Assembly (NCBI GenBank): GCA_902767365.1
Contig: CACXGX010000089.1
Span: 1 to 51,176 of the forward strand
From: an uncultured Erysipelotrichaceae bacterium
GTDB lineage: Bacteria > Bacillota_I > Bacilli_A > RF39 > UBA660
Direction of reading: 5' to 3'
Length of the DNA stretch: 51,176 nt
Both the position numbers and the translations under genes were made by a program. Below, in pieces: positions 32,842 to 51,176 of the stretch. Under the pieces are notes generated by a model. That model was not told where the DNA came from. It searched no databases and saw nothing but the letters and a program-made list of their open reading frames with translations. Positions within the stretch are counted from its first letter, which is position 1. Each line of letters opens with the position of its first letter.

Positions 32842-32881
32842 TTGATACCTCCTTTGAATTATTACGTGTTTAAAAATAGAA

Positions 32882-32921
32882 AAGAGTATAGTATTCCATT
32901 TTTTTGAAAAACTATACTCTT
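32882..32921 (-). promoter_or_regulatory. 11-bp perfect inverted repeat in the RT 5' leader
   Basis: AAGAGTATAGT-(18 nt)-ACTATACTCTT lies between a minus-strand extended -10 (TGTTATAAT, complement of 32934-32942) and the RT SD. Confidence 0.4.
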
Positions 32922-33066
32922 ATTATCAAACTTATTATAACATACTTTTCATTTTTTTAATAATTTCGTTATTTTTTTTAAATAATCCATTAACAAAACT
33001 ATATTTTTTTTTAACTATTATAGTAATAGTTCTTTACAACATAGTAATTTTTTTGATTCAAATGTA

Positions 33067-33095
33067 TTGACATATTAAAAAAAAAATATTATATT
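33067..33095 (+). promoter_or_regulatory. sigma-A-type promoter for the Abi_2 gene
   Basis: TTGACA (33067-33072), 17-nt spacer, TATATT (33090-33095). Confidence 0.45.
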
Positions 33096-33105
33096 ATTCT
33101 CGTGA

Positions 33106-34912: not shown

Positions 34913-36163
34913 ATGAAAAAAACAAAAACAATACTATTATTAATATTAGTACTAACTATGATTGGAATGCCGTTAGTATATGCTTCTTATGATTCAACAA
35001 AAGCAGTTGCTATGTCTGTTGGTACAGATTATAGCGGAACTTGGCCATTGGAATCAGATATAGATACTACTCAAGATGCAATAGATGCTCAAGCTGCTTT
35101 TGCAAATATGGGTTTTAATTCATATTATCAGAGTATTCCAACATATCAATACTTAAGAGGCAATAATCCATATACAGGAAGTCCAAGAATGGAGAGTAGA
35201 ATATTGTTCTTTAGTGGACATGGAAATTATCAAAGTGTAACGTATGATTATAAAAAGTATTCAGGGGATTATAAAACTGGTGTTTTTTGGTACTATAATT
35301 ATGATTCTCCCACTTCAGGATATAAATATGCAGGAATTTATTCTTATAATATGAATAAAGTTAAATTAGCAATTTTTGGCGCTTGTCAAACTGCTTTTGG
35401 AACTGATAACATAGCAAAAAGAGCAAATACAGCAGGAGCGGGAACAACTTTAGGATGGTCAGTATCGATAGGTTCTACATCTCATTCTCAATGGTTTAAT
35501 AACTTTTTTACTAAATTAAAACAATCTGGAAGAACAGTTCAATCTGCTGTTGATTATGCAAATAGTTTTTCATACTCAGATAATGGTGTAAAAAATGTTA
35601 TTGTATATGGAGACACAACTTATGTTCCTACTTGGAATACTAGTTCTTCAACATCTTCAAATAATCCATCTCAATCAGATCGAGGTAATACTACAAATAT
35701 TTTATTATCTGACATTTCAAATATAAATTCTAATAAAACTATTATAGAAGATTATATTAAAGAAAATATGAATAAAGATTTTAAAATTGATGATTATAGC
35801 CTAGAAATAAATGGAGAAGGAAATAGAAAATATTATGATCTTAAATTACTAGTAAATGGTGCAAAAACAAATAGTGCTTATACAATAGTAATTGAGAATA
35901 ATACAATTGTTGAAATAATTGATAATACAATAGAATCATTTGATTGGAAAAATGTAAAAGAAAACACAATTTCAAAAGAAGAGCAAAGTAGGATTGCAAA
36001 TGAAATAAAGGAAAAAGTTGAAAAGAATGATAACTATAAAGTGATGTCTCAAAAAATTGAAACAATTTATGATATTGATTATTCAGAATATAAAACTCTA
36101 ATTTTAACAGAAGTAAAAGAAAAATCTACAAATACATTATTTGTAATGGAAGATTTATTGTAG
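34913..36163 (+). CDS. Sec-secreted CHAT/caspase-like (clan CD-type His-Cys) protein
   Basis: Signal peptide MKKTKTILLLILVLTMIGMPLVYA. RILFFSGHG (His) and LAIFGACQTAFGTDNIAKRANTAGAGTTLGWSV (Cys) match the CHAT pattern hFaGHG / LsaCqTa.G...a...aGa....lW.v. ATG 34913 follows SD AGGAGG. Confidence 0.55.
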   Translation: MKKTKTILLLILVLTMIGMPLVYASYDSTKAVAMSVGTDYSGTWPLESDIDTTQDAIDAQAAFANMGFNSYYQSIPTYQYLRGNNPYTGSPRMESRILFFSGHGNYQSVTYDYKKYSGDYKTGVFWYYNYDSPTSGYKYAGIYSYNMNKVKLAIFGACQTAFGTDNIAKRANTAGAGTTLGWSVSIGSTSHSQWFNNFFTKLKQSGRTVQSAVDYANSFSYSDNGVKNVIVYGDTTYVPTWNTSSSTSSNNPSQSDRGNTTNILLSDISNINSNKTIIEDYIKENMNKDFKIDDYSLEINGEGNRKYYDLKLLVNGAKTNSAYTIVIENNTIVEIIDNTIESFDWKNVKENTISKEEQSRIANEIKEKVEKNDNYKVMSQKIETIYDIDYSEYKTLILTEVKEKSTNTLFVMEDLL

Positions 36164-36165
36164 AA

Positions 36166-36192
36166 AAAATGGCTCATTGCGAGCCATTTTTT
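36166..36192 (+). terminator. rho-independent terminator
   Basis: AAAATGGCTC-attgc-GAGCCATTTT followed by a T-run. Confidence 0.65.
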
Positions 36193-36262
36193 AATTCATA
36201 TTACTATTTATAAAAAATATGTTATAATTAGAGAGTAAAAATTATTTTAATTTGGTGATAAT

Positions 36263-36535
36263 ATGAAAAAGAAAATTGTAATTATAATTAGTTTACTATT
36301 AGTTATATGGCTATTTTTGTTAATTGTTAATCTTATGAAAGTAAATAATAAGCAAAAACCAGTAATGTGTTTTACTTCAAATCTAAAAAAAGATGGAGGC
36401 TCTGGACACTATATATGTTTAGGATATTCTTTTGACATTGAAGGAGATTTTAATCCAGAATCAAATAATTATGGAATAAATAAATATAGTTTTAGTTTTT
36501 TTGGAATTAAAATAGTTAAAGAAAAACATATTTAA
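36263..36535 (+). CDS. small N-terminally anchored hypothetical protein (90 aa)
   Basis: TM IVIIISLLLVIWLFLLIV; own extended -10 (TGTTATAAT, 36220-36228); followed by a hairpin plus T-run. Confidence 0.5.
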   Translation: MKKKIVIIISLLLVIWLFLLIVNLMKVNNKQKPVMCFTSNLKKDGGSGHYICLGYSFDIEGDFNPESNNYGINKYSFSFFGIKIVKEKHI

Positions 36536-36814
36536 TTATAATTGTTTAAGTATTAACAAGTATCAATAAGGTACTTGTTTTTTTTATGTAAAAATCAACT
36601 AGCAAAAAAAGAGAATTGTGTATCTAATTTAGAGATTACAAAAAGGACCAAATTTGTCCTAAAGTAGCAATTTAAGGTTATATGAGAATGATTATTATTT
36701 GTTATTTTTAAATTGTAGAAGTCTATTCTATGGATTGGATGGTGGTTTTTAATGACTTAAAATTTAATAACATTTTATAAAAAAATATGTAATGATTCAA
36801 AGGAGGTATGATTT

Positions 36815-37441
36815 ATGAATGAATATGATTACATAATAGATGCATTTACAAGAGACGGAAATAATACAAATTTAGAAGTAGATAATTTAACAGTAGGATG
36901 TATATCATCTGCAAACAACAATTTTAGTTTAGATAGTAGTGGAAATTTAACAGTAAACTCAATTACAACACAAAGTGGGCCAACTATCGATTTTGATTCA
37001 ATTTATCCAATTGGTTCAATTTATTTAACTGTTGGAAGTGTAAGCCCAGCAACATTATTTGGTGGTACATGGGAAAGAATAAAAGATTGTTTTTTATTGG
37101 CAGCGGGTGATACATATCAAGCTGGAAGTTCAGGTGGAGAAAGTACTCATGCTTTAACAATAAATGAAATGCCAAATCATAGCCATACAAATAGTGTTAC
37201 AACAAATGGTGGACATAGTCATACAGGACATACAAAAGAAGTAAGAGCTCAAGTAAGTGGACAACCATCAAGTGATTGTGCAAGAAATATCAGTTCGTCT
37301 TATGATCATAGTGGAATTACTATCACAGATGCCGCTGGTTCTCACTCACATTCTGTTACAATCAATAATGCTGGAGGTGGAGTAGCGCATAATAATATGC
37401 CACCATATTTAACAGTATATATTTGGAAAAGAACAGCATAG
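36815..37441 (+). CDS. phage tail-collar domain protein (MdpB/tail-fibre-like)
   Basis: IYPIGSIYLTV..PATLFGGTWERI...GGESTHALTINEMPNHSH..HSH..HNNMPPYLTVYIWKR is the tail-collar signature; no signal peptide; SD AAAGGAGG. Confidence 0.8.
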   Translation: MNEYDYIIDAFTRDGNNTNLEVDNLTVGCISSANNNFSLDSSGNLTVNSITTQSGPTIDFDSIYPIGSIYLTVGSVSPATLFGGTWERIKDCFLLAAGDTYQAGSSGGESTHALTINEMPNHSHTNSVTTNGGHSHTGHTKEVRAQVSGQPSSDCARNISSSYDHSGITITDAAGSHSHSVTINNAGGGVAHNNMPPYLTVYIWKRTA

Positions 37442-37450
37442 AGGTTAAAT

Positions 37451-40400
37451 ATGATAGAGTTAATTGATAAAAGGAAACCTAATGAAAAGTATTATTTAAA
37501 AGATAATGGAAATTGTGAAGTTCATATATTTAACCATAATGTACACTTTTTTAGAGATGGAAAATATGAAGAGATAAGTAACATTTTAGTTGAAAATCAA
37601 GATTTAATTGAAGTTAATAATCGTGAAATTAAAATATCATTTGATAAAAAAGATGGTTCAATAAAATATATGAAAGAGGGAAAATATTTAAAAGTAATAC
37701 CTTATACGTTTAAGCCAAATGATTATGTTATTGAACTTAATGGAAAAGAAAGTAGCAAGATTAAGTTTTTATCAGATAATGTTGATTTAGAATATATTAT
37801 ATCTTCTGGAACAGTAAAAGAAAATATAATTATAAAAAATGAAATAAAATATAATATGATTGAATATATACTAGATAGTAATCTTAATTTAGTAATAGAA
37901 AAAAACAAACTAATTGCTTTTCAAAAAAATGTTAAAATATTTGAATTTATACCACCATATATGAAAGATGCAAATGGTGTTGAAAGTAATGATACTAAAT
38001 ATGAATTGCAAAAGGAAAAATTGACTATAAATTTTGATAAAAAATGGATAAATAGCTCAAAAAGAAAATACCCAGTTGTCATAGATCCAACAATAATAGA
38101 AAAGGGAACTAATGCAGAAGACACTTATATATATGATGGAGATACATCTGATGTTAGGTATAATCGAGAATATCTAATTGCAGGAGTACAAAAAGTAAAT
38201 AATCAAGATAGAGTTAATAGAGCTCTTATAAAATTTAATTTACCTGATCTTGGAACTTGTGACGAAATAATACGAGCAGAATTAAGAATAATTGGATTTT
38301 ACAAAACCGAAACAGGAAATAATGATTATAAAACGTTAACTATTCATCAGATAACTACTGCATGGGATGAAACAACAGCGACTTGGAGTAACATGCAAAA
38401 TAATTATAATAATGAAGCTGAAGCAGTAGCATATATAATGAGAAGTATATATGATTCTTCCAATCCACAAGAATCAATTTATCAACAAAGTTTAACCCCT
38501 TGTTTAATCACTGATTTAGTCAAAAAATGGTATCAGAATACACCAAATAATGGCATTTTAATAAAACAATCTAGAGAAGAATATATTGATAATGTACCTC
38601 CAATTTTATTTTCAAGTAATTGTGGGATAAATTCTTTAAGCCCATGTTTGATAATTGAATATAGAAAAGGAAATGGTCTTTTATCTTACATGGACTATAA
38701 TACACAAAATTACACAAATGGTAAGACTAATATAAATACATTTAATGGTAATTTAAATGCAACGTTTGATGTTGCGTCTACAATAGGACTGTTTCCTGCA
38801 GTATTAGGAATAACTTACAATACAAATGATGTAGTGAATAATTATAATACACAATATGGACTTGGGTATAGTTTAACATTAGATGAAACAATAAGGAATA
38901 TAAACATATCTAATGTAAATAAGTTGGAATATAGAGATAGAACAGGGGCAATTTATTATTTTTCTTTAAATGGAGATAAATATCATGATGAGGATGGATT
39001 ATTTTTAGAAATATTATATGATGATAATAATAACAATTATATCTTAAATGATAAAAATGGTAATAAAATGACTTTTACTCAATATGGTAATACATATTAT
39101 CTAAGTAATATCAAAGATTTAAGAAATTATGAAATAAATATAATAAGAAATACCAATGGTATAGTAACAAAGGTTATAGACTACAATAATAATGAAATAA
39201 ATATTAGCTACGAATCTAATAGTATTATTTTTACATCACCAAGTGAAACTACTACATTAAATTTTCAAAATAATATTTTACAAAATATAGTGACTAAGGA
39301 TGGTATAACTTCATTTTCATATAATTCAAATAACCTTATTACAAAAATAATTGATGTAACTGGATTGTCAATTGAATATAATTACTACTTAAAAAAGCCA
39401 TATAAAATACAGAGCATAGTACATTATGGGTTAAATAATGCAGAAGGAGAAAGCTTGTACTTTGAATATAGAAATTTAAGTACAATTATAACAAATAGTA
39501 ATGGGATAATAATTACAAATATATATAATTATTATGGAAATCTAATATCATCAAATATTTTGCCTAACAATGGTAATTTAAATGAAATGTATTCTATATC
39601 AAAAACATATGGAGAAGAAAATGATAATATAAATAAGATTTTGCATAAGATTATTCCAGTGAAATTTTCAAAAAATTTCTTTAAAATTACAAATCAATTT
39701 AATATGTATAGTGTTACGGATGTTTCAAACTATATGGAATATGATGACGAAATAGATAGTAATTATACTGGTGCTGGACTAGTTAAATTTATAAGTACAA
39801 CTATTAATCAACATGCAGTGTCATCTTTTGAACTGACTAGTAATAAAACTTATACACTAAGTTTAGATATTAAATCAAGTTCAAATTCTAAAATATCATT
39901 TTATTATGATGGTAATGAGGAAAATCCATTATTTGAAAAAGATATAAATGCAAATAGTGACTATCAAAAATTATTTTTTACTTTCAATAAAACAAATATA
40001 AATAATTTGATAATGCACTTATATCATCAAAATATATGTGAAACATACATAGGTGACATTAATATTACAGAAGGAGAAATGTTAAATAATTGCAATTTAA
40101 TAGATAATTCAGATTTTTCCAATGGAACAGATGGTTGGAGTACAACAGTTTTTAGTTATGGAGATTATACTTTACCAAGTGTAAATAGTGTTTTTTCGGT
40201 AGTTGATATTGACAATTTTTCAAATAAAGCTTTAAAAGTATCTATGGATCCATATTATGGAAGCAAAATTACAAAAAATATAGATGTTTCAGGAACAAAT
40301 GATCAATTATATTATCTATCATTTTGGTACAAAAATAATGGTGTTGAGACAAGCAATATATCAGGACCTGGTAGTGCCATAGGAAATTCAGTTGGAGTGT

Positions 40401-43400
40401 ATTTTCAACCATTATATGGAGAAGCAGAATATTGTATTCAAACTTATGAGTTAAACTCAAATAAAGGGGTATGGCAATATTTTTCTCTTCCTTTTAGTCC
40501 AAGTGAATCATTTAAAAAAATAATAATCATTCTTAATCAAGGAAGACAGTCTGGTGAATTATTTATTACAAATTTTTCATTATATAAAGGCATAAAGACA
40601 AATAAATACACATATGATGAAAATCAAAATATTGTAGAAGTTAGTAGTTTGTCAAATAATAATATTTTTAGCTATGATAATGTCAATGAGCTTGTAAATA
40701 TATCAGATACAAGAGGGAAAAATTTTAAATTAGAATATGATAATAATTATCGTAATAGAATTATCAGAGCTATTTCGACATCGGGTATATCAAATAAAAT
40801 AAAATATGATAATCATGGAAATAAGGTAGAAACTAGAATTTCAAAAGAATATAGTAATGAGATTGATACAGGTTATTATAAGATTAGACAAAAAGGAGCA
40901 AGTGACTATATTAAACTTCAAGCCAATACTATTACTTTAATGCATGATTATTGTAGTAATTCAGTATTCAAAATTGAAAAGATAAATAATGATTTTAGAA
41001 TTAGAGATGCTGCAATACAAAATAGATATTTATCAGAGTTAAATGGCATGTTAGTAATAAGTAATAATGAAAATAATACATTTAAATTAGAAAAAAACAA
41101 TAATTCTAGTTATCATATATATACGGAAGACAACAATCAAAATAAAAAGTATTTAAAATGGATAAATAACCATTTTGAGTTTGTAAGTAATTACTCTGAT
41201 ATTGAAGATAATTATTTGTATGAGTATTATTTTGAAGATCAAACAAAAAAGTTTTTTTCAAATGAGGCAACATATTCAAGTGATGGTAGATTTTTAACAA
41301 GTATAAAAGATACGCTCCTAAAAGAAACTGTATTTACAACAAATTCAATTAACGGGCTTATAACAAAAATAAAAAAACCAAATAATATAGAAATAAATTA
41401 TACATATAATAATAAAGAAATGATATCCCAAATATCGTGCGGAAACAAGCAAGTAAATTATTCATATAATAATCAAAATTTATTATCAAATATAATAAGC
41501 GGAAATAAAAATTATAAGTTATTCTATGATGACTTTTTGAATATTAGTAACATTATGATTAATAACAGAAATATAATAACTAATACATATGGTCAAAATA
41601 ATGGAAGTTTATTATCTTCAACATATGGTAACAATAATGCTATAAGTTACCAATATGATTCTTTTGAAAGAATAAAAAAAATAACTAAAGAAGATAATGT
41701 CTATGAATATTTTTATAATAATAATGGTAATGTTTATAAAATTAAAGATAATATAGATGATATTAATTATGTATATGATAATGAAAACAGGGTGATTGAG
41801 TATAGAAAAGGACTTTTTTCAATAAAATATAAATATGATAATGAAAATAATATAATTCAAAAAATTGTAAAGGAAAACAATTTGTCTAAAACTATAAACA
41901 ACACATTTAGTATTGAAGGACAATTAACAGAGACAAATTTAGATGATACAAACATAAAATATACTTATGATGATCTTTTAAGATTAACTTGTAAGAAAAT
42001 AAATAATAGTTATGAAACTAAATATGATTATGTTTCAATTGGCAATAGGACTTCATCAATTATAAAATCGATGACAAATGGTCAAAATAAGTATTCATAT
42101 GAATATGACAATATGTATAATGTTACAAAAATATATTTAAATAATATATTATTATATCATTTTATCTATGATGATTATAACGAATTAATTGTTTCTGAAG
42201 ATTATAAAAATAATATTAAATATGAGTATGTATATGATAATGGTGGTAATATTTTATCAAAGACTAAAAAGAATTTAACAACAGGAGTAACAATAAGTTC
42301 AGATTCGTTTGAGTATAATGATTCAAGTTGGGAAGATTTATTAACTAAATATAATAACGAATCTATTACTTATGATACAATTGGTAATCCGGTTTCTATT
42401 GGTAATAAAGTTTTAACATGGAAAAATGGAAGACAATTAGCTTCCTATACTAACAACAATTATTCTATTTTATACAAGTATAATTTAAATGGTGTAAGAA
42501 CAGAAAAAGTTGTTAATAACGTTAAAACAGAATATTGTTTGGAAAATAACAAGATAATTTTTGAAAAAACAGGAGATATTATTATTTATTATTTATATTC
42601 AGATGAAGAGATTATTGGATTTGTTTATAATAATAACAAATATTATTATATAAAGAATTTGCAAAAAGATATAATTGGTATACTTAATTCAAGTAATGAT
42701 TTACTAGTCAGTTATGAATATGACGCATATGGAAATATTTTGAGTATAAAAGATTCAAATAATCAAAACATAGTAGATCAAACACATATTGGTATAATTA
42801 ATCCGTTTAGGTATAGAGGATACTATTATGACAAAGAAACGAATCTCTATTATCTAAATTCAAGATACTATAACCCTGAATGGGGAAGATTTCTTAATGC
42901 TGATTTTGCATTTGGAGAAAACAAAGATATTTTTTCATATAATCTATTTGCCTACGTATCTAATTCACCAATCACATATATAGATGTTGATGGATATGGA
43001 AGAACTGTTGTTATAGTTTATAATGGAGGTAAAAAGTTAACTTTACAAGCTGAATATTCAGAATATTTTGTAACAGGAGACTTAGATGTTGAAATGTATT
43101 ATGTTGTATATGTAGACGATTTTGTCGAGGTATGGAATGATTTAAAGGGTAGAGAGGACATAGATAGAATCTACTTATATTTACATGGTATTGAAGGAGC
43201 ACTTACTTTCTATGGAAAAGAAGAAATACTATATTCAAGTGAGATGAATGATCTTGAATATATTCAAGTAAATGATTTAGTTGCATTATTTAGTTGTTAT
43301 GGTGGAAAGGGAACTGATACAGAAGTAAGTGTTGCAAAAAAATTATCGACAAAAACAAATGCTCCTGTACATGCAAATACTGGAAAAGTTTCATATGGCA

Positions 43401-43570
43401 AAGAAAATGGAAGATATTATGCAAGAAGTGCAAAAAATCCATTTGTATCAGGTAATTGGATTGTAGAAAAAACAAGTAAGTTTACTGTTACGTTAGTTGA
43501 CAATATCGTAAAGACTATATATAATTTCATTAGTAAGGTTACTAAAAATATTTTGAGCCTTTTGAGGTGA
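37451..43570 (+). CDS. RHS/YD-repeat polymorphic toxin (2039 aa) with DNRLRE-like N-terminal region and CHAT-like C-terminal toxin domain
   Basis: Many YD repeats (YEYDAYGNILSIKD, YVYDNGGNILSK, KYDNHGNKVE). RHS core end is PFRYRGYYYDKETNLYYLNSRYYNPEWGRFLNAD...SPITYIDVDGYG. A 189-aa C-terminal domain follows (43001-43567). No signal peptide or LXG domain. Confidence 0.9.
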   Translation: MIELIDKRKPNEKYYLKDNGNCEVHIFNHNVHFFRDGKYEEISNILVENQDLIEVNNREIKISFDKKDGSIKYMKEGKYLKVIPYTFKPNDYVIELNGKESSKIKFLSDNVDLEYIISSGTVKENIIIKNEIKYNMIEYILDSNLNLVIEKNKLIAFQKNVKIFEFIPPYMKDANGVESNDTKYELQKEKLTINFDKKWINSSKRKYPVVIDPTIIEKGTNAEDTYIYDGDTSDVRYNREYLIAGVQKVNNQDRVNRALIKFNLPDLGTCDEIIRAELRIIGFYKTETGNNDYKTLTIHQITTAWDETTATWSNMQNNYNNEAEAVAYIMRSIYDSSNPQESIYQQSLTPCLITDLVKKWYQNTPNNGILIKQSREEYIDNVPPILFSSNCGINSLSPCLIIEYRKGNGLLSYMDYNTQNYTNGKTNINTFNGNLNATFDVASTIGLFPAVLGITYNTNDVVNNYNTQYGLGYSLTLDETIRNINISNVNKLEYRDRTGAIYYFSLNGDKYHDEDGLFLEILYDDNNNNYILNDKNGNKMTFTQYGNTYYLSNIKDLRNYEINIIRNTNGIVTKVIDYNNNEINISYESNSIIFTSPSETTTLNFQNNILQNIVTKDGITSFSYNSNNLITKIIDVTGLSIEYNYYLKKPYKIQSIVHYGLNNAEGESLYFEYRNLSTIITNSNGIIITNIYNYYGNLISSNILPNNGNLNEMYSISKTYGEENDNINKILHKIIPVKFSKNFFKITNQFNMYSVTDVSNYMEYDDEIDSNYTGAGLVKFISTTINQHAVSSFELTSNKTYTLSLDIKSSSNSKISFYYDGNEENPLFEKDINANSDYQKLFFTFNKTNINNLIMHLYHQNICETYIGDINITEGEMLNNCNLIDNSDFSNGTDGWSTTVFSYGDYTLPSVNSVFSVVDIDNFSNKALKVSMDPYYGSKITKNIDVSGTNDQLYYLSFWYKNNGVETSNISGPGSAIGNSVGVYFQPLYGEAEYCIQTYELNSNKGVWQYFSLPFSPSESFKKIIIILNQGRQSGELFITNFSLYKGIKTNKYTYDENQNIVEVSSLSNNNIFSYDNVNELVNISDTRGKNFKLEYDNNYRNRIIRAISTSGISNKIKYDNHGNKVETRISKEYSNEIDTGYYKIRQKGASDYIKLQANTITLMHDYCSNSVFKIEKINNDFRIRDAAIQNRYLSELNGMLVISNNENNTFKLEKNNNSSYHIYTEDNNQNKKYLKWINNHFEFVSNYSDIEDNYLYEYYFEDQTKKFFSNEATYSSDGRFLTSIKDTLLKETVFTTNSINGLITKIKKPNNIEINYTYNNKEMISQISCGNKQVNYSYNNQNLLSNIISGNKNYKLFYDDFLNISNIMINNRNIITNTYGQNNGSLLSSTYGNNNAISYQYDSFERIKKITKEDNVYEYFYNNNGNVYKIKDNIDDINYVYDNENRVIEYRKGLFSIKYKYDNENNIIQKIVKENNLSKTINNTFSIEGQLTETNLDDTNIKYTYDDLLRLTCKKINNSYETKYDYVSIGNRTSSIIKSMTNGQNKYSYEYDNMYNVTKIYLNNILLYHFIYDDYNELIVSEDYKNNIKYEYVYDNGGNILSKTKKNLTTGVTISSDSFEYNDSSWEDLLTKYNNESITYDTIGNPVSIGNKVLTWKNGRQLASYTNNNYSILYKYNLNGVRTEKVVNNVKTEYCLENNKIIFEKTGDIIIYYLYSDEEIIGFVYNNNKYYYIKNLQKDIIGILNSSNDLLVSYEYDAYGNILSIKDSNNQNIVDQTHIGIINPFRYRGYYYDKETNLYYLNSRYYNPEWGRFLNADFAFGENKDIFSYNLFAYVSNSPITYIDVDGYGRTVVIVYNGGKKLTLQAEYSEYFVTGDLDVEMYYVVYVDDFVEVWNDLKGREDIDRIYLYLHGIEGALTFYGKEEILYSSEMNDLEYIQVNDLVALFSCYGGKGTDTEVSVAKKLSTKTNAPVHANTGKVSYGKENGRYYARSAKNPFVSGNWIVEKTSKFTVTLVDNIVKTIYNFISKVTKNILSLLR

Positions 43571-43575
43571 TTTTT

Positions 43576-44568
43576 ATGCGTATTAGATATTTTTACATCG
43601 TTTTGTTAATCATTGTATTTTTTGTTGTTTTTGTGTTTTTTTGGGGAAAAAACACAAAAAATGTAACAATTCATAATGAAACTAATAAAGTAAATTATAT
43701 AAATACTAACAATATTGCCAATAAATCTAATTTAGCCTTCATTAATGATGATGTATTTGTCTATTATTGTGATATTTGTGAAAAAGAGGGGTTGTATTTA
43801 AGATTAAATAAAGATGAAAAAATATTAATTGATATTGGAGACATCTCTAATATAATTATACTTGATGATTGGATATATTATATTAAAACTAATTATATAA
43901 ATGATTATGGACAATATATTCTTTATAGAAGCGATTTTAATGGTGAAAATCGTAGCATTATATTAAAAGATGTTCAAGACGTTCATATTATTGATGGCAA
44001 AATATATTATAGAAAATCATATTTTGCATTGGGTGGAAGCAAAAATATAGAAATGGATGATTTAGGATATATTTATGTTTGTGACATGAATGGTGAAAAT
44101 ATTCAAAAATTGATAGAAGAGAAAACAAACATTTTATCAAATATGCTTGTTTATGAAAATTCAATATACTATGAGATAGATAATAATATAATTCAATATA
44201 ATATAAATAGTAAAAATAGAAAAGTAATATTGTCATTTAAAGATGAACTAAAGAACAAAAGATTTCTAATATGCAATGATATACTTTTAATCAAAAAAAA
44301 TAATAAATTTATTGTATATAACTTAATTACAGAAAAGGAAGAGAAATCCATAGACAATATTGGATATGTAAACTTTTTTACTTTTGATAATAATAAAGTA
44401 TATTTTTTAAAACCAGACAAAACATTGAATATTTATAACTTAGAATTGAATAATATCGAAACTTTTATATATACTGGGATTCAAAACTATATACAAACGT
44501 ATAACAGTAAGCATTATGTAGTATCAGGTGATGGTATTTTTTGCATAGAAGATATTATAAATAATTAA
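43576..44568 (+). CDS. membrane-anchored beta-propeller (DUF5050-like) protein; candidate immunity protein
   Basis: SD GAGGTGA lies within the last RHS codons. N-terminal TM YFYIVLLIIVFFVVFVFFW; repeated ..IYY.. blades (DDWIYYIK, DGKIYYRK, ENSIYYEI, NKVYFLK). Confidence 0.55.
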   Translation: MRIRYFYIVLLIIVFFVVFVFFWGKNTKNVTIHNETNKVNYINTNNIANKSNLAFINDDVFVYYCDICEKEGLYLRLNKDEKILIDIGDISNIIILDDWIYYIKTNYINDYGQYILYRSDFNGENRSIILKDVQDVHIIDGKIYYRKSYFALGGSKNIEMDDLGYIYVCDMNGENIQKLIEEKTNILSNMLVYENSIYYEIDNNIIQYNINSKNRKVILSFKDELKNKRFLICNDILLIKKNNKFIVYNLITEKEEKSIDNIGYVNFFTFDNNKVYFLKPDKTLNIYNLELNNIETFIYTGIQNYIQTYNSKHYVVSGDGIFCIEDIINN

Positions 44569-44581
44569 GTAGGAGATTTTA

Positions 44582-44899
44582 ATGAAAATAACATATATGT
44601 TAATTGTAAGTGTAGTAACATATATTTTAGGCGCTATTAATAAAATGTTTTTTGAAACTTTACCTAATAGGTTTATTCCAATACAAAATGTAATAGTAGG
44701 GTTAATCAGCGGATTTGTTTGCTATTTTGCAAATATTGAAACAAGTTTATTTAATTCAATCATTGTTTGTCTGGTTGCTGCACAAGCTGCAGGAGGTGTA
44801 TCTGATTTATTTCAAACTAATAAAGATACAACTGTAAATGCAATTGGTGATAGCAGTGAAGTATATGATGAGTTAGAAATAAAGGATAAAGATGAATAA
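44582..44899 (+). CDS. holin (phage phi-LC3-family-like)
   Basis: 105 aa, 3 hydrophobic segments, ..NRFIPIQNVIVGLISG..AAQAAGGVSDLFQ.., charged C-terminus; overlaps the endolysin start by 8 nt. Confidence 0.7.
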   Translation: MKITYMLIVSVVTYILGAINKMFFETLPNRFIPIQNVIVGLISGFVCYFANIETSLFNSIIVCLVAAQAAGGVSDLFQTNKDTTVNAIGDSSEVYDELEIKDKDE

Positions 44900-45806
44900 T
44901 ATTGAATTTGCAAACAAGGCAAGAAGTATCGCTATAAATTATAAAACATTATATATTTTAGGGTGTTTTGGAGCACCACTAAATAATAGTAATAAAAAGA
45001 GATATAGTAATAATTATGATTATAATAGAAGAAGTGTTAGAAAAGAAAAAATAATGAACGCTTCTTCTGATACCTTTGGGTTTGATTGTGTTTGTTTAAT
45101 TAAAGGCATTCTATGGGGATGGAGTGGAAATAAAAGCCATATCTACGGAGGTGCTGACTATAATATTTCAAAAATACCAGGTAAATGCCCTGATTATAAT
45201 GCTGATCAGATGATCAAACAATGTACATCAATTTCTACTGATTTTAGTAGTATTGAAATAGGAGAAATTGTTCATATACCTGGACATGTTGGAATATATG
45301 TTGGTGCCGGATTAATTGCTGAATGTACACCAATTTGGAAAGATGGTGTCCAGTTAACTGCTTTGCTTAATATTAGTTCTAAAGTAGGATATAATGGTAG
45401 AACTTGGAAAGAACATGGAAAACTAAAATACGTTGACTATGGTTCAAGTAATGAGCCTAATAAAAAGAGTATTGATGAAATAGCTAGAGAAGTTATAGAA
45501 GGCATTTGGGGAAATGGTGAAGAAAGAAAGAAAAAACTTCAAAATGCAGGATATGATTATAATGAGGTTCAAAAAAGAGTTAATGAATTATTAGGGAATA
45601 ATTCGAATTCTAGTCAAGAATACTATCCAAAATCAAATTATAAAGGTAATAGTATAGTAGATGCTTTAAAAGAGTTAGGAATAGACTCAAGTTTCAAAAA
45701 CAGAAAGATAATTGCAAATAAAAATGGAATAAGTTTTTATTTAGGTACACCTAGTCAAAATACAAAGTTATTACAGTTACTAAAAAACGGAAAATTAAAA
45801 AAATAA
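44892..45806 (+). CDS. endolysin: NlpC/P60-type endopeptidase with Cpl-7 (CW_7) and C-terminal wall-binding repeats
   Basis: Cys context FGFDCVCLIKGILWGW and His context GHVGIYVG; Cpl-7-like IAREVIEGIWGNGEERKKKLQNAGYDYNEVQKRVNELL; terminal ..NGISFYLGTPSQNTKLLQLLKNGKL. Confidence 0.8.
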   Translation: MNNIEFANKARSIAINYKTLYILGCFGAPLNNSNKKRYSNNYDYNRRSVRKEKIMNASSDTFGFDCVCLIKGILWGWSGNKSHIYGGADYNISKIPGKCPDYNADQMIKQCTSISTDFSSIEIGEIVHIPGHVGIYVGAGLIAECTPIWKDGVQLTALLNISSKVGYNGRTWKEHGKLKYVDYGSSNEPNKKSIDEIAREVIEGIWGNGEERKKKLQNAGYDYNEVQKRVNELLGNNSNSSQEYYPKSNYKGNSIVDALKELGIDSSFKNRKIIANKNGISFYLGTPSQNTKLLQLLKNGKLKK

Positions 45807-45837
45807 ATAGTTGAGATTAATTCTCAACTATTTTTTT
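45807..45837. terminator. bidirectional hairpin terminator between the endolysin (+) and the XRE gene (-)
   Basis: ATAGTTGAGA-ttaat-TCTCAACTAT flanked by an A-run (5') and a T7 run (3'). Confidence 0.7.
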
Positions 45838-46261
45838 ATCTAAATAAATTATCAATTGAAAAAGGTTCATAAATGCTTAATAAATTTACTAAATAAACTG
45901 TTTTTATAAGATTTTTTCCATTTTCATAATCACAATAAGTACTAGAAGATATATTAATTTTTTTACTAACTTGTTCAATTGTCATATTACTTTGTTTTCG
46001 TAGTTTTCTTAAATTGCATCCTATTATTTTTTTATCTATTGTAATAAATGAATAATTATTTATTCTATTAATGCCCAAAAGATTATCTATACTTATTTTG
46101 TATATGTTTGAAATGTCTACTAATCTCTTTAAAGGAATATTATCATGATTATTTATCCATCCGGATACTGTTTTATATGATATTCCTAATTCAGTAGCCA
46201 AATCTTTCTGCTTAATTTCATGTGTTTCGCAGAAATTTCTTAATTGATTCGCTATATCCAT
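45836..46261 (-). CDS. XRE-family regulator with two HTH domains
   Basis: Two HTH_3-like segments (..HEIKQKDLATELGISYKTVSGWIN.. and ..SNMTIEQVSKKINISSSTYCDYENG..). Confidence 0.75.
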   Translation of the reverse strand: MDIANQLRNFCETHEIKQKDLATELGISYKTVSGWINNHDNIPLKRLVDISNIYKISIDNLLGINRINNYSFITIDKKIIGCNLRKLRKQSNMTIEQVSKKINISSSTYCDYENGKNLIKTVYLVNLLSIYEPFSIDNLFR

Positions 46262-46420
46262 TCATATATCACCAAAAATTATTATTCCAAAAACATTATT
46301 GAATTATTTAAAAGTCTGGGAAATACGAAAGAGAATTTTTGTAATTCTCCCGATTGGAGATTTTTCAATTATCTATTTGTTTTATAATGTGTGTAATAAA
46401 TATAGCGAGGAGGTGAAAAA

Positions 46421-47146
46421 ATGAGTGGCAATAAAGCTACTATAGCTAAAATAGGAAAACATATTGCAGAATTAAGAAAAGAAAAAGGTTTCACTCAAAG
46501 AACCTTATCTGAAATGGTATATGTTGGTGAAAAAACAGTATCTAAATGGGAGAGAGGAATTGTTGCACCAGACATTGCCATGATTAAAACTCTTTCAAAT
46601 ATATTTGAAGTTAGTGTTGATGAATTATTGAGTGGAGAAAAAATAGAAAATAATAATGAAAATTGTACAGTTAATGCTATTAATGCTTATACATATCAAG
46701 CAAAACATAAAGTATTAAAAGTATCTTTGTTTATTGGGACTTTATTTTTAATAACATTTTTACTAGTATTTTTCATTAGCAGATATTATATGTGGAAAGT
46801 TGAACGATTTGAAATACAAGATCAATTATCAGTTTATGGCTATACAATAAGTAATAATTTGGATACTAAGGTAATAGTGGATAAAATAATATATGATGAT
46901 CCTTATGCTGGAACTAGTGATGAACTTAAAGCTAATTACATTAAAATGAGTTTATACTCTGAAAATGAAGAAATCTGCAGTAGTGAATTTTCATATGATA
47001 ACGATATTGCAGTATTTTCAATTATGAATAATTATATTTTTATATGCGATAATGAAAAGAGGTTTAATGATAAAGAATTGTCCTTAAGGTTTGACTTTGT
47101 TGGGAAAAATAGTTCAATGAAAAAAGAAATTTCGTTGAAAAAGTAA
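46421..47146 (+). CDS. membrane-tethered XRE-family regulator (HTH + TM + extracytoplasmic domain)
   Basis: N-terminal HTH (..KGFTQRTLSEMVYVGEKTVSKWERG..), TM VSLFIGTLFLITFLLVFFI, about 120-aa C-terminal domain; divergent from 45836-46261. Confidence 0.75.
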   Translation: MSGNKATIAKIGKHIAELRKEKGFTQRTLSEMVYVGEKTVSKWERGIVAPDIAMIKTLSNIFEVSVDELLSGEKIENNNENCTVNAINAYTYQAKHKVLKVSLFIGTLFLITFLLVFFISRYYMWKVERFEIQDQLSVYGYTISNNLDTKVIVDKIIYDDPYAGTSDELKANYIKMSLYSENEEICSSEFSYDNDIAVFSIMNNYIFICDNEKRFNDKELSLRFDFVGKNSSMKKEISLKK

Positions 47147-47233
47147 TGTAGCAAAATTGGATACTAATGTAACCATTTTTGCTACAATAAATCTTAAAAC
47201 AATAATATAAAATATTTTATGAAAGGAGGAATA

Positions 47234-47971
47234 ATGATGGTAAAGAAGATATTATTATGTTTTGTTGCAATTTTATTTTTATTTCCTGCATTGGTCTTTG
47301 CAAAAGAAGATGATTTTGTTGTATTGTCAGAAAATACAAAATATTATAAAACAGAAACATACTTGGAAGGAATTAATAAAAATAAAAGCATTACATATGA
47401 AATAACAAAAGATGAATACGATTCAGTGAATGTTGAAGAAATGTTAAGAAGTAATCCAACTACAGTTAATACTACATATAAAAGTATGACATCTTCAATA
47501 TTAGCTAATGGTAGCTACTATAGATATAAAAATGTACTTAACTGGAAAACAATGCCATCAACTAGAAGTTACGATATAATAGGAATTGGTTTTTTGCAAA
47601 GTGTTAAAGTTCATTCAAATACAACATATTTTGAGCAATACTATTGTTATACAGGTGGTTCTTGCTATTACTCATATAGTAATACTCCACAAATATTTGT
47701 TTCAGGTGCTGGAACATCTTTTGAACTTCCGTCTGGAAATTTAAATACACTTCGTCAGACATTCTATTTCGATGTTGAAAAAAATACTAATAGTACTATT
47801 TATTCACAATATGCTTATGGCGATTATTCACATGCTACGAGCACTATCTCTCAAAGTAATGCAATGAATTACTCAGTAATACAATCTGGTGGAATTGTTT
47901 TAGATAGTAGTATTATAAGTTATTATGATTCAATTTCAACTGCAACAGCATCATGGTCAGGAAGTTGGTAA
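47234..47971 (+). CDS. secreted hypothetical protein (~245 aa, Ser/Thr/Tyr/Asn-rich)
   Basis: SD AAAGGAGG, signal peptide MMVKKILLCFVAILFLFPALVFA; no recognised motif. Confidence 0.55.
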   Translation: MMVKKILLCFVAILFLFPALVFAKEDDFVVLSENTKYYKTETYLEGINKNKSITYEITKDEYDSVNVEEMLRSNPTTVNTTYKSMTSSILANGSYYRYKNVLNWKTMPSTRSYDIIGIGFLQSVKVHSNTTYFEQYYCYTGGSCYYSYSNTPQIFVSGAGTSFELPSGNLNTLRQTFYFDVEKNTNSTIYSQYAYGDYSHATSTISQSNAMNYSVIQSGGIVLDSSIISYYDSISTATASWSGSW

Positions 47972-48287: not shown

Positions 48288-48749
48288 ATGGACAAACGTC
48301 CTTGTCGAAGAAAATTTAAAGACAATCCTTATACATTAACTAGTAATAAGGATGAAAACGTATATATTATAAATTTTATTGATAGCAGGGGTATATTACA
48401 AAATGTTGAAGTAAATAAAGATATTTTTGAATTGTTTGATAAAAGTGAAAAAGAGGAAAATGCACGATTTTACGAATATGCAAAACATTTAATGCATGAA
48501 GATTTCAATTCTGAAGTTATAGCTAGTGATTATTCTCTAGAAGAAGAAGTTTTTAATAATATGACAATTAAGGAATTGAAACGGGCATTAGATGAACTTC
48601 CATCAATACAAAAAAGAAGAATAATTAAATATTATTTCTATGATATGACTTTAGAAGCAATTGCCAAGGAAGAAAGATGTACAGCAAAAGCAATTCGATT
48701 CAGTATAAATATCGCTTTAGAGAAAATTTTAAAAAAATTTCAAAAATAG
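48288..48749 (+). CDS. sigma-70 region-4-like small regulator typical of conjugative transposon control modules
   Basis: C-terminus LPSIQKRRIIKYYFYDMTLEAIAKEERCTAKAIRFSINIALEKI is a region-4 HTH pattern; SD AAAGGAG. Confidence 0.65.
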   Translation: MDKRPCRRKFKDNPYTLTSNKDENVYIINFIDSRGILQNVEVNKDIFELFDKSEKEENARFYEYAKHLMHEDFNSEVIASDYSLEEEVFNNMTIKELKRALDELPSIQKRRIIKYYFYDMTLEAIAKEERCTAKAIRFSINIALEKILKKFQK

Positions 48750-48779
48750 ACTACGTTTTTATTTGATTTCACTACTAAT

Positions 48780-48810
48780 GGTGAGAGGAGAAATTCTCTC
48801 ACCAATTTTT
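48780..48810 (+). terminator. rho-independent terminator
   Basis: GGTGAGAG-gagaaatt-CTCTCACC followed by AATTTTT. Confidence 0.6.
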
Positions 48811-48990
48811 ATGAAAATTTAATAACATTTATCAAATACAGATAATGATACATATACTTAGTCGACAGTCGAGCGTGATAAAACCGTCGCAACAATCGAG
48901 AGTATCCACTTTAAATGGTGGTGGTGAGAGTCCAATGGTTACTGCTATAGTCGTTTGATAAAAATAGTTTATTTAATGAAGAGGAGGAAA

Positions 48991-49467: not shown

Positions 49468-49496
49468 TTTTTTGATAAAATAATTATTATTATGAT

Positions 49497-51176
49497 ATGA
49501 AAGAGAGTGATAATTTAGTGGCATTAGTTAGAGTTATTGAGTCAAATAAAAATAATAATTTAGAACACATATCTCTAAAAAAGAAAAAAAGAGTGTGTGC
49601 ATATTGTAGAGTAAGTACTGATATGGAGGAACAAAAAAATAGTTATTATTCACAAATTAATTATTACTCAAATTATATTAAAAGTAATAAAGAATGGGAA
49701 TTTGTAGGAATATATGCTGATGAAGGAATATCTGGGACAATGATTAAGAAAAGAAACGAATTCAAAAGAATGGTTGATGATTGTAGGGCACATAGAATAG
49801 ATATTGTTATTGCAAAATCAATATCTAGATTTGCTAGAAATACAGTTGATACTTTAAACACTGTTAGAGAGTTTCGTGAATTGGGAGTAGATGTTTATTT
49901 TGAAAAAGAAAACATTCATACATTAAAGTTAGATAGTGAAATGTTTTTAACTTTATATAGTGCATTTGCCCAAGCTGAGAGTGAATCTACATCTATGAAT
50001 GTTAAACTTGGATATAAAGCAAAAATGAAAAGGGGTGAACCTTGTGGAAGTATTGCATGTTATGGTTACACATGGGATAAAACATTAAAAAAATTAATTA
50101 TAAATGAAAAAGAGTCAAAAATTGTAAAAAAAGTATTTAATATGTATTTAAAAGGTGATGGTTCTTCTGTAATTGCTAGAAAACTTACTGAAGAAAAAAT
50201 AATAGCACCTTCTGGCGGAAATACATGGCATCCTAGCGTTATAAGATCTATGATCCAAAACGTTAAATATGTTGGAGACATATGTGGGCAAAAATATTTT
50301 GTAGAGAACCCTATGACTCATAAGTTAATTAAAAATAGAGGGCAAAAAAATATGTATTATGTAACTGAACATCACGAACCTATAATTAATAAAAAGATAT
50401 TTGAAAAAGCACAAGAAATCTATAGAGCTAGAAGTATTACAATTAAAGATGGAAAAGAATATTGCCCTAAATATAGTTTAAGGCATACTTTTAGTAGTAT
50501 GATCTATTGCAATAATTGTGGAGAAACATATACAAGAAGATATGCTAAATATAAAAATAAAGATGGAATCATGCACGAACATGTATATTGGGCATGTTCC
50601 TCTATACCAAAAAAAATAAATTGTGGTAAGTCGGTTGCTATAAGAGATGATGAATTAAAATCATTGTTTGTTTCTTTATATAACAAATATCTATGTGGTT
50701 CTCAAACAACAAATTTATTAAAAAAAATAAGAGATGTCATTTATAAAGAAAATAGTGAAGAAAAGATTAATAATGTTGAAAATAAGATAGTAAAAGTTAG
50801 AGATCAAATTAATAAAATAATTGATTTAAGTTTAAATAATGAAATAAGTGATGAAATTTTTTCTTCTAAAAACAAAGAGTTAAATGAAGAACTATTAAGA
50901 TTAGAAGATGAAAAGGGGAAAATACTTAATTATAGTTCACATATGAGAACAGAAGAAAAAAGAATGCAAGAAATAGAAAAAATATTAGATAAAGCTAAAA
51001 CAATGAAAAAATTTGATGATGAGATATTTAAAAAAATCACTAATAGGGTTATCATTGGAGAATATGATGATAAAAATGCATATAATCCTAATGTAATTAA
51101 GTTTATTTTAAACATCAACAAAATCAAACAAAAATATGAAAAAGTGCATTTGTTACATGAGTTCGATGAGCGGATA
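49497..51176 (+). CDS. large serine recombinase (resolvase/invertase N-terminal domain + recombinase + zinc-ribbon), truncated by the window end
   Basis: Not in ORF track because no stop lies within the window. My translation: ..RVCAYCRVSTDMEEQKNSYYSQ..YADEGISGT..IAKSISRFARNTVDTL..FEKENI.., then recombinase domain and CNNCGE..WACS zinc ribbon. Start is ATG 49497 or GTG 49518. Confidence 0.9.
   Translation, partial: MKESDNLVALVRVIESNKNNNLEHISLKKKKRVCAYCRVSTDMEEQKNSYYSQINYYSNYIKSNKEWEFVGIYADEGISGTMIKKRNEFKRMVDDCRAHRIDIVIAKSISRFARNTVDTLNTVREFRELGVDVYFEKENIHTLKLDSEMFLTLYSAFAQAESESTSMNVKLGYKAKMKRGEPCGSIACYGYTWDKTLKKLIINEKESKIVKKVFNMYLKGDGSSVIARKLTEEKIIAPSGGNTWHPSVIRSMIQNVKYVGDICGQKYFVENPMTHKLIKNRGQKNMYYVTEHHEPIINKKIFEKAQEIYRARSITIKDGKEYCPKYSLRHTFSSMIYCNNCGETYTRRYAKYKNKDGIMHEHVYWACSSIPKKINCGKSVAIRDDELKSLFVSLYNKYLCGSQTTNLLKKIRDVIYKENSEEKINNVENKIVKVRDQINKIIDLSLNNEISDEIFSSKNKELNEELLRLEDEKGKILNYSSHMRTEEKRMQEIEKILDKAKTMKKFDDEIFKKITNRVIIGEYDDKNAYNPNVIKFILNINKIKQKYEKVHLLHEFDERI

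Follow-up and report, generated by a model that had tools for sequence, protein, structure and literature searches.

A phage antireceptor-like gene and a holin-hydrolase pair linked to a signal-less RHS toxin gene: a candidate lysis-coupled release module on an integrative and conjugative element of an uncultured gut bacterium

Organization of the RHS toxin locus

The window analyzed here is the whole 51,176-nucleotide (nt) stretch of contig CACXGX010000089.1 (assembly GCA_902767365.1) from an uncultured Erysipelotrichaceae bacterium. It carries a module of five genes that encode a phage antireceptor-like protein with a Gp10_C domain, a very large RHS protein without a signal peptide, a DUF5050 protein, a holin, and a peptidoglycan hydrolase (lysin) (Table 1). 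The module lies on an integrative and conjugative element (ICE), as a first-pass annotation of the sequence had stated, since the window encodes NikA, a relaxase, a type IV coupling protein, PrgI, and VirB4, plus a large serine recombinase. Open reading frame (ORF) calling reproduces the five co-directional genes of that annotation at the same coordinates, with spacings of 9, 5, 13, and -8 nt, the last being the overlap of the lysin gene with the holin gene. The 5-nt gap before the DUF5050 gene becomes a 4-nt overlap with the RHS gene if the start is the GTG at 43567. A Shine-Dalgarno sequence precedes each of the five genes, and the bidirectional terminator that had been said to close the set is present at 45805-45833, one of 14 terminator-like sites in the window (1.6 expected). 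The tight spacing, the ribosome-binding sites, and the flanking terminators are the structure of an operon. The 3′ end of the RHS gene contains a perfect sigma-70 consensus (TTGACA-17-TATAAT) at 43497..43525 (+ strand), about 40 nt before the DUF5050 gene, with a 12/12 match that 0 of 200 background windows reached; this consensus is possibly a separate promoter for the DUF5050 gene, the candidate immunity gene of the operon. As a feature of the family this promoter was rejected, since the 12/12 match occurs only in the window and one other locus reaches 11/12.

Table 1. Features of the RHS module and of its flanks in the window (labels such as L001 denote homologous RHS loci; C4, C8, and C13 are clusters of neighboring ORFs)
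Feature	Position	Strand	Basis or remark
Gp10_C/phage antireceptor-like protein, 208 amino acids (aa)	36815..37441	+	Pfam, PHROG; without signal peptide
DNRLRE-RHS polymorphic toxin, 2039 aa, signal-less	37451..43570	+	Polar N terminus, DNRLRE, YD shell, RHS-associated core
RHS variable C-terminal toxin domain, ~190 aa	42995..43567	+	Tentative clan CD cysteine peptidase
DUF5050 protein, one N-terminal transmembrane (TM) segment; candidate immunity protein	43576..44568	+	Pfam, TM prediction
Holin, 105 aa, 3 TM segments, acidic C-tail	44582..44899	+	PHROG
Peptidoglycan hydrolase (lysin), signal-less	44892..45806	+	N-terminal catalytic domain (PHROG endolysin; Cys/His motif), CW_7 repeat, DUF3597-like tail
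Bidirectional intrinsic terminator, operon 3′ end	45805..45833	both	12-bp hairpin, T-runs on both strands
Terminator-like hairpin ending the preceding gene; 5′ limit of the module transcription unit	36555..36579	+	Terminator scan
Further upstream terminator	36164..36192		Terminator scan
Double helix-turn-helix (HTH; Cro/CI-type) regulator, convergent with the operon	45836..46261	-	Same position in L009 and L101
HTH protein with TM segment (C4), first gene of the conserved C4-C13-C8 cassette	46421..47146	+	
250-aa protein (C13)	47219..47971	+	N-terminal hydrophobic segment, no Pfam match
Small sigma-70-like protein (C8)	48288..48749	+	
Conserved promoter-like box (48807-48840), then pemK RNA motif RF02913 (48842-48938)	48807..48938	+	
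Large serine recombinase ORF, running off the window 3′ end	49479..51176	+	39% identity to L101 recombinase, 2e-101; ICE integration/excision

The call of a holin is borne out by a PHROG holin match (8.5e-7) and by its three TM segments, which are followed by an acidic tail; the match to Pfam holin superfamily V falls below the curated cutoff. The lysin has neither a TM segment nor a signal peptide. It matches CW_7 at 8e-22 and the Cpl-7 structure 5i8l at 1.7e-30, and its N-terminal 190 residues match PHROG endolysin families. It had been described as an NlpC/P60 plus Cpl-7 enzyme, of which the CW_7/Cpl-7 part stands; NlpC/P60 is not confirmed by Pfam or by PDB sequence search, and the motif DCVC...GHVGIYVG is recognizable by eye only.

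The RHS protein and its Gp10_C partner

The RHS protein matches Pfam RHS_repeat (1.2e-13) and TIGR01643, and its homologues carry TEN_YD-shell. A DNRLRE domain spans aa 223-402 (nt 38117-38656), and the Rhs_assc_core (TIGR03696, 8.2e-18) spans aa 1757-1848 (nt 42719-42994), with residues R1805, Y1806, Y1807, R1813, F1814, D1818, D1845, and G1848 invariant in 20 homologues. The RHS and Gp10_C proteins both lack a signal peptide, a TM segment, an LPXTG anchor, and an LXG domain, in agreement with the first-pass annotation; neither has a hydrophobic N terminus, and searches of Pfam and NCBIfam gave no LXG or WXG100-type domain in the RHS protein. Relatives of the RHS protein number 546 at E <= 1e-10, and the best 120 of these 546 are approximately 2030 to 2110 aa long, align over about 91% of the query, and end in differing Pfam toxin domains. 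All of the full-length homologues (119/119) start with the polar motif MKEIEL.EKRK..EKHFL.EDG and have no hydrophobic stretch there. In the alignment, Sec-type relatives have a signal peptide and an acidic linker, followed by the block that forms the N terminus in the window's clade, which indicates that the RHS protein is an extracellular-type protein that lost its Sec signal and therefore needs another exit route.

The protein encoded directly upstream matches Pfam Gp10_C at 1.4e-22, as well as PHROG tail and tail-fiber families. It had been named a tail-collar protein, which is right in that it has a T4 gp10 C-terminal/antireceptor-type domain and wrong with respect to the Collar domain itself (PF07484). 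Residues 60-208 share 45-48% identity (E as low as 2e-34) with the C termini of putative antireceptors of Lactobacillus delbrueckii siphophages, a homology that fits the suggested role in target-cell binding, and on this basis we propose the Gp10_C protein as the partner through which the RHS toxin binds its receptor. Searched by sequence against the PDB, it gave nothing meaningful. Partner lengths run from 125 to 655 aa across the loci. Many of the Gp10_C proteins, at 125-230 aa, are short and have no long shaft of the kind usual in fibers; L100 encodes a second tail-collar protein, of 592 aa, after the lysin. The best full-length phage match to the Gp10_C protein (L103) was discarded as a relative of the module, as it is an ordinary 636-aa tail fiber with no RHS gene downstream.

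Synteny of the signal-less and signal-peptide RHS loci

A scan of one genome per species gave at least 600 matching stretches, at least 576 of which encode an RHS relative. Among the matches listed, the closest come from uncultured gut Bacilli and "Tenericutes" metagenome-assembled genomes (MAGs) of humans, mice, chickens, rabbits, and ruminants, and the more distant RHS relatives come from Clostridia and have a classical signal peptide. The survey set comprised 63 nonredundant loci, 36 signal-less and 27 with a signal peptide. Neighboring ORFs from -4 kb to +8 kb were clustered without reference to the window, and profile hidden Markov models were run on whole loci with flanks of up to 10 kb at either end.

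The first-pass annotation had suggested a survey of RHS genes for linked holin and endolysin genes, and the outcome is that Gp10_C, holin, and hydrolase genes accompany signal-less RHS genes only and never the Sec-signal clade. The Gp10_C gene is present in 31 of the 36 signal-less loci, almost always directly upstream of the RHS gene, and in none of the 27 signal-peptide loci (Fisher, 5e-13), and a holin or hydrolase gene is nearby in 23/36 versus 0/27 loci (Fisher, 3e-8); the two classes are also two lineages (Bacilli/"Tenericutes" MAGs and Clostridia), so that these tests are not phylogenetically independent. Only one signal-peptide locus, L071 of a member of the Haloplasmataceae, is near the signal-less lineage. 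Holin genes and hydrolase genes occur in 20 signal-less loci each and together in 17, and in all 17 they are adjacent and on the same strand. No match to the Gp10_C, holin, or hydrolase profiles was found in any signal-peptide locus. The Pfam census points the same way, with LysM, Peptidase_M23, CW_7, and GH25 leading downstream of signal-less RHS genes and PT-HINT, Imm40, and orphan RHS repeats leading in the signal-peptide class.

The lysis genes themselves are diverse. The holins belong to unrelated families, of which two, Phage_holin_4_1 (7.5e-38) and the superfamily V type of the window, are well supported and a third, phrog_443-like type is weak. The hydrolases represent at least five catalytic types (M23 plus LysM, CW_7 plus LysM, GH25 plus DUF3597, Amidase_2, and M15, besides the window's type). 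The position of the pair also varies: the window, L004, L009, L019, and L101 have it downstream of the immunity gene, L020, L023, L027, and L032 after an immunity-like gene array, L011, L016, L026, L030, L036, and L093 upstream of the Gp10_C gene, and L021 and L033 upstream but on the opposite strand. By this comparison of families, the lysis genes are replaced nonorthologously while the association persists, and a linkage that survives replacement and rearrangement indicates a functional tie rather than leftover synteny.

Sequence constraint was compared between the window and L101, which lies on a second ICE in another MAG. The holins share 80% aa identity (dN/dS, the ratio of nonsynonymous to synonymous substitution rates, 0.12) and the lysins 73% (dN/dS, 0.135), these ratios being approximate because dS is near saturation, and the RHS shells share 44%. 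Holin and lysin are thus the best-conserved genes of the module in this pair, and their ratios indicate that they are under purifying selection between the two related ICEs.

Two small families are found in the signal-less class only. C12 (~106 aa; phrog_4105, a family with no assigned function) is encoded just before the holin (L006, 17116-17436), and C6 (~170 aa; no match) just after Phage_holin_4_1 (L032, 23525-24034). They may be accessory lysis or regulatory factors.

Phage ancestry and genomic context

The absence of capsid, portal, terminase, and tail-tube genes noted in the first-pass annotation is confirmed for every window ORF of at least 100 aa, and tube, sheath, tape-measure, and baseplate families are likewise missing from the window (Pfam and PHROG) and from the annotated contexts of other loci. 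Homologous loci are not embedded in complete prophages, a finding that would have spoken against the first-pass proposal: in 8 of 8 Pfam-annotated contexts phage structural genes are absent. Housekeeping genes (rplU-rpmA-obg, mutS/mutL, uvrC, dnaK, and polysaccharide synthesis) surround seven of them, and the eighth is the ICE of L101. Only 9 of 2.9 million viral contigs encode an RHS relative, 2 of them full length, compared with at least 576 in reference genomes. A near-identity DNA search of positions 36000-46300 against plasmid and phage collections gave no match.

Two loci on IMG/VR contigs contain true phage genes. In L091 (897-12461), genes for the small and large terminase subunits and a split portal gene lie just downstream of a signal-less RHS gene, making it the only 1 of the 36 signal-less loci that abuts a terminase/portal module; the census gave two Phage_portal matches because this one gene is split. 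In L093 (4076-16261), genes for a 652-aa tail protein, a holin-like protein, and a lysin lie directly upstream of Gp10_C-RHS, with no further structural genes in view. The other candidates for phage structural genes in the census turned out to be housekeeping genes. L091 and L093 point to a phage ancestry of the module, and, judged by homology and context, its parts are clearly phage derived and prophage residence is the exception.

These contigs also bear on the possibility that Gp10_C-RHS is an accessory fiber of a phage or satellite encoded elsewhere and that the cassette releases that phage. Gp10_C is a tail-fiber tip domain, L091 and L093 are viral contigs, and L100 has its second tail-collar protein, all of which would suit a particle-associated toxin. 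We nevertheless hold this explanation to be very improbable, because baseplate, tube, sheath, capsid, and packaging genes are missing from the window and from all eight annotated chromosomal or ICE contexts and because many Gp10_C proteins are short and without a long fiber shaft.

Toxin domains and candidate immunity proteins

The window's C-terminal toxin domain is rare, with only 2 database relatives plus P0007, and contains the invariant motifs YLYLHGG (His-Gly) and LFSCYGG (Ser-Cys). A structural model of the domain, of moderate confidence (pLDDT 72), has its top PDB fold matches exclusively in clan CD, namely, caspases, CHAT, gingipain K, and separase (E ~1e-3; TM score, ~0.4), and according to this model the domain is likely, though tentatively, a caspase-like protease. 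The 421-aa protein encoded upstream of the module at 34898-36163 matches nothing in Pfam, PHROG, or NCBIfam; it has a hydrophobic segment in its N-terminal part, and its motifs ILFFSGHG and LAIFGAC resemble a clan CD peptidase dyad. A kinship of the toxin domain with this secreted protein was dropped, as the comparison gave E = 0.53 despite the similar-looking His/Cys motifs.

Across the survey set, the first gene downstream of the RHS gene is similar in 23 of 35 pairs of loci with similar toxin domains and in 1 of 1396 other pairs (Fisher, 1.6e-40), a pattern of co-variation that is the signature of cognate immunity. In the window, this position is taken by the DUF5050 protein (29.3 bits; cutoff, 27), which has one strong N-terminal TM segment; its putative immunity role follows from position, because the set holds no relative of the window's toxin-immunity pair. 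The gene product had been annotated as a TM-anchored beta-propeller. The TM segment stands, and the beta-propeller label is not independently confirmed, as a single-sequence AlphaFold model has a pLDDT of 38; a PDB sequence search gave nothing meaningful. Some toxin-domain families are common to the signal-less RHS proteins of Bacilli and the Sec-signal RHS proteins of Clostridia (L019/L052 and L026/L043/L065/L087), which indicates an exchange of payloads between the export types.

In several loci (L023, 16090-22022; L029, 14641-19413; and L041, 16805-18189), the RHS gene is followed by two to four paralogous genes in tandem (cluster C2, ~230-350 aa), which resemble arrays of immunity genes. 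No other family takes the first downstream position as often as C2, which pairs with one family of toxin domains.

A lysis-coupled release model and its alternatives

The first-pass annotation had proposed that the holin/endolysin pair is the export route of the RHS toxin. The family-wide linkage of these genes to the signal-less clade supports this proposal, with export itself being a function that we infer from gene content. Taken together, the comparative evidence makes it reasonably probable that the module is a phage-derived system for lysis-coupled release of a soluble antibacterial RHS toxin, as a cytoplasmically assembled Gp10_C-RHS complex, with fiber-guided binding to competitors and immunity encoded downstream. 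The Gp10_C and RHS proteins would fold, and probably associate, in the cytoplasm in the manner of phage tail fibers. The operon would be switched on in a fraction of cells, in which the holin would permeabilize the membrane, the signal-less hydrolase would reach and cut the wall, and the cell would lyse or at least open, freeing the 230-kDa toxin with its partner. The Gp10_C protein and the carbohydrate-binding-type DNRLRE region of the RHS protein would bind the surface of a competitor, the encapsulated C-terminal domain, here probably a caspase-like protease, would be delivered, and the membrane-anchored DUF5050 protein would protect siblings.

Several points weigh against this account. Linkage in sequence is not mechanism, and all of the support is comparative and, for the contrast between the two classes, confounded by lineage as noted above. 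Thirteen of the 36 signal-less loci have no lysis gene, including 7 of the 23 with ample flank, so the pair is not obligatory in cis, or is unrecognized in these loci, or lies elsewhere in the genome. The catalytic domain of the window's lysin matches no curated family. Transcription from the internal promoter ahead of the DUF5050 gene would continue into the holin and lysin genes, which is awkward for constitutive immunity combined with induced lysis, and the model leaves unexplained how a released RHS protein would cross the envelope of a Gram-positive target. Finally, the ICE of the window encodes EssC, which makes a type VII secretion system (T7SS) a conceivable route for the toxin of the window.

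The last point leads to the explanation that the phage genes are passengers, the remnants of a phage with an RHS moron, and that the toxin exits by the T7SS or another exporter. EssC (T7SS ATPase; TIGR03928, 861 bits) is full length, has an FHA domain, and is the first gene of the window (485-5041); it is encoded 32 kb from the RHS module, with conjugation genes between, and no EssC is encoded within 10 kb of any of the 100-plus other loci. L091 and L093 show that the phage origin is real, and lysis genes are missing in about one-third of the loci and decayed in L001-L003, as remnants might be. Remnants, however, would not be swapped for unrelated equivalents or moved across the operon while remaining linked, the dN/dS values of about 0.12 to 0.14 denote constraint, and the RHS protein has no LXG or WXG100 domain and an N terminus homologous to the post-signal-peptide region of Sec substrates. 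On balance, we regard the passenger explanation as unlikely.

A second explanation shares the linkage evidence with the lytic one and differs in the fate of the producer: holin and hydrolase could open a local, controlled passage across the membrane and the wall in the manner of type 10 secretion, and the cell would survive, a mode of release already suggested for some holin-dependent toxins. Lysis would cost the ICE its host, so that a lytic module on an ICE looks costly, and the perfect internal promoter implies basal transcription of the holin and lysin genes, which is hard to square with an obligately lethal pair. The cargo, however, is a protein of ~230 kDa plus a probably trimeric partner, the holins are of ordinary phage lysis families, and the hydrolases, rather than being degenerate fragments, are endolysin-type enzymes of full length that carry wall-binding modules; no signs of attenuation are seen in the sequences. 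Nonlytic secretion therefore seems improbable to us, to about the same degree as the passenger explanation, and lysis-coupled release remains the preferred reading.

Regulatory features

The lysin gene and the convergent double-HTH regulator gene are followed in the window by the C4-C13-C8 cassette (Table 1). The profile of the sigma-like C8 family matches FliA regions 3-4 and region 4 of extracytoplasmic function (ECF) sigma factors, and C8 homologues are encoded directly upstream of Gp10_C-RHS in L006, L019, L022, L039, and L100. Between the sigma-like gene and the Gp10_C gene lie a terminator, a 34-nt box (TTCTTTGAAAA-TTTAATA...ATAATCAAATAC), and a conserved leader with the pemK RNA (Rfam RF02913), which scores above the gathering threshold and stands directly before the Gp10_C-RHS operon in several loci. 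The stretches noted for the pemK RNA, which follows a sigma-like gene, a terminator, and the box, are 48779-48938 in the window, 9037-9246 in L006, 7705-7915 and 20926-21136 in L019, 2380-2435 in L022, 8539-8726 in L039, 1050-1239 in L102, 8343 onward in L100, and 21346 onward in L101. In the window and L101, the cassette is located 3′ of the lysin gene and reads toward the recombinase gene.

The exact 17-mer AAAATTTAATAACATTT occurs at 36759..36775 (+ strand), 40 nt before the Gp10_C start, and at 48814-48830, within the sigma-associated box, and nowhere else in the window (2 copies versus 0.03 expected); the repeat may be a recent duplication or a shared control site. The first copy is without the conserved flanks of the box and scores -14.8 on a weight matrix built from the other loci. 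Control of the toxin operon by the window's sigma cassette through a shared box is unsupported, given this score and the lack of a box upstream of Gp10_C in relatives of the window type.

A literature search returned no functional description of the pemK motif. A more speculative extension of the release model, which is possible but in our judgment rather doubtful, is that Gp10_C-RHS forms a minimal phage-derived bacteriocin particle, a receptor-binding fiber tip on a toxin-filled YD cocoon with no tail machine, put together in the cytoplasm and freed by programmed lysis of a subpopulation under the dedicated sigma-like factor and the pemK leader. If true, gut Bacilli would possess a distinct and widespread class of polymorphic-toxin delivery, and a functional context would be at hand for the first time for the orphan motif pemK RNA.

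Relation to known systems

Clostridial large toxins, colicins, and tailocins are established cases of lysis-coupled release. The pathogenicity locus (PaLoc) of Clostridioides difficile encodes the sigma factor TcdR, the toxins TcdB and TcdA, the holin TcdE, and an endolysin remnant, TcdL, and Clostridium perfringens has the UviA/UviB-BCN5 bacteriocin locus. These Gram-positive loci resemble the module in their large signal-less toxins and in having a holin-family gene within the toxin locus, and a further possible likeness is the dedicated small sigma-family factor upstream of Gp10_C-RHS in the five loci named above. The PaLoc and BCN5 toxins differ in not being RHS proteins and in having no tail-fiber partner; the PaLoc has no immunity gene, and TcdL is a fragment, whereas the hydrolases found here are full length and carry wall-binding modules. 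Phage tail-like bacteriocins (R and F pyocins, diffocin, and monocin) kill by means of tube, sheath, and baseplate and have no toxin domain. They share with the module the use of domesticated phage parts against competitors, a specificity set by the fiber, and release by a resident holin-endolysin pair; in contrast, the window has no tail-machine genes, and an enzymatic RHS payload is the proposed killer.

The Tc toxin of Yersinia entomophaga is released by a type 10 secretion system (holin, endolysin, and spanin) in a specialized subpopulation (PMC10847048). Its likeness to the module lies in a signal-less toxin, an RHS/YD cocoon around the payload, and a phage-type holin and endolysin that act outside a prophage in controlled lysis, and the traits of its own are a Gram-negative producer, the spanin, a tripartite toxin (TcA translocator plus TcB/TcC), and insecticidal activity (PMC10847048). 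The module of the window is of Gram-positive type, with a single-chain RHS protein that ends in a polymorphic toxin domain, an immunity gene that co-varies with this domain across the family, and presumably bacterial targets, and it has a small phage antireceptor-like partner in place of TcA.

WapA-CT1 of Streptococcus suis is a Sec-dependent Gram-positive RHS/WapA toxin with a DNRLRE domain, an RHS shell, a polymorphic C-terminal toxin, and a downstream immunity gene, as here; WapA differs in having a signal peptide, LysM wall binding, a SecF-like/sortase helper, and contact-dependent action, and its passage through the wall is undefined (PMC12704120). The Clostridia homologues found in our survey belong to the Sec type, too, and have toxin-domain families in common with the signal-less clade, in which Gp10_C, holin, and hydrolase occur instead of a signal peptide or wall anchor. 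Bacterial teneurin-like YD-shell toxins of Bacillota also have immunity genes, and some are without signal peptides; their delivery and release are to be elucidated, no lysis cassette or tail-fiber partner is reported for them, and their architecture is TTR/FN-plug/TIP (PMC13018210, 2026).

The first-pass annotation had known of no description of such a Gram-positive, ICE-borne arrangement, and the literature search likewise brought up no account in which a signal-less RHS clade is paired with both a holin-hydrolase cassette and a phage antireceptor-like protein. The arrangement recurs outside prophages in many uncultured gut bacteria, which suggests how such toxins may exit the cell. The exit of very large signal-less RHS or teneurin-like toxins from Gram-positive cells is an acknowledged open question (PMC13018210, PMC12704120). 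This RHS family offers a testable answer to it with a natural control, the Sec-signal sister proteins that lack the phage-derived genes. With it, the reach of lysis-coupled, type-10-like release would widen from pathogens of insects and humans to competition among bacteria, here uncultured gut Bacilli. The phage antireceptor domain points to a way of making retargetable protein antibacterials, and carriage on an ICE shows the weapon to be horizontally mobile.

The ICE and its other genes

In addition to the conjugation genes, the ICE of the window encodes ParA/ParB, a thioester adhesin, a sortase, SSB, and a TrbL-like protein. The L101 ICE and the window are collinear, with 64-80% nucleotide identity, over a stretch that includes the conjugation genes, Gp10_C, RHS, holin/lysin, the regulators, and the recombinase, which indicates that the module is a stable cargo of an ICE family. 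L101 differs in its toxin tip and its downstream gene and in having no Abi/reverse transcriptase block (~30.8-36.8 kb of the window), so this block is an insertion in the window. The ICE-borne arrangement highlighted in the first-pass annotation applies to the window and is not a general trait; because most relatives are chromosomal, the ICE location is incidental.

The defense genes of the ICE (24527-25201 and 31003-34113) encode AbiTii, an AbiA-type reverse transcriptase with a HEPN C-terminal domain (minus strand), and Abi_2. Their closeness upstream of the module would suit an abortive-infection role in which the toxin, holin, and lysin kill an infected host cell, an idea that we consider least credible of all: the Abi block is an insertion relative to the collinear L101, other loci have housekeeping neighbors, and a polymorphic toxin domain that co-varies with the gene downstream is the mark of an interbacterial toxin.

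A C39-peptidase ABC bacteriocin exporter is encoded at 6956-9034, and together with EssC it indicates that the ICE may carry several competition systems; the rest of any T7SS cluster would fall outside the window, beyond its 5′ edge. Following VirB4, a conserved protein of ~550 aa with no family match is encoded in both the window (29149-30795) and L101 (7426-9111), and it occupies the slot where Gram-positive conjugation systems often encode a wall hydrolase.

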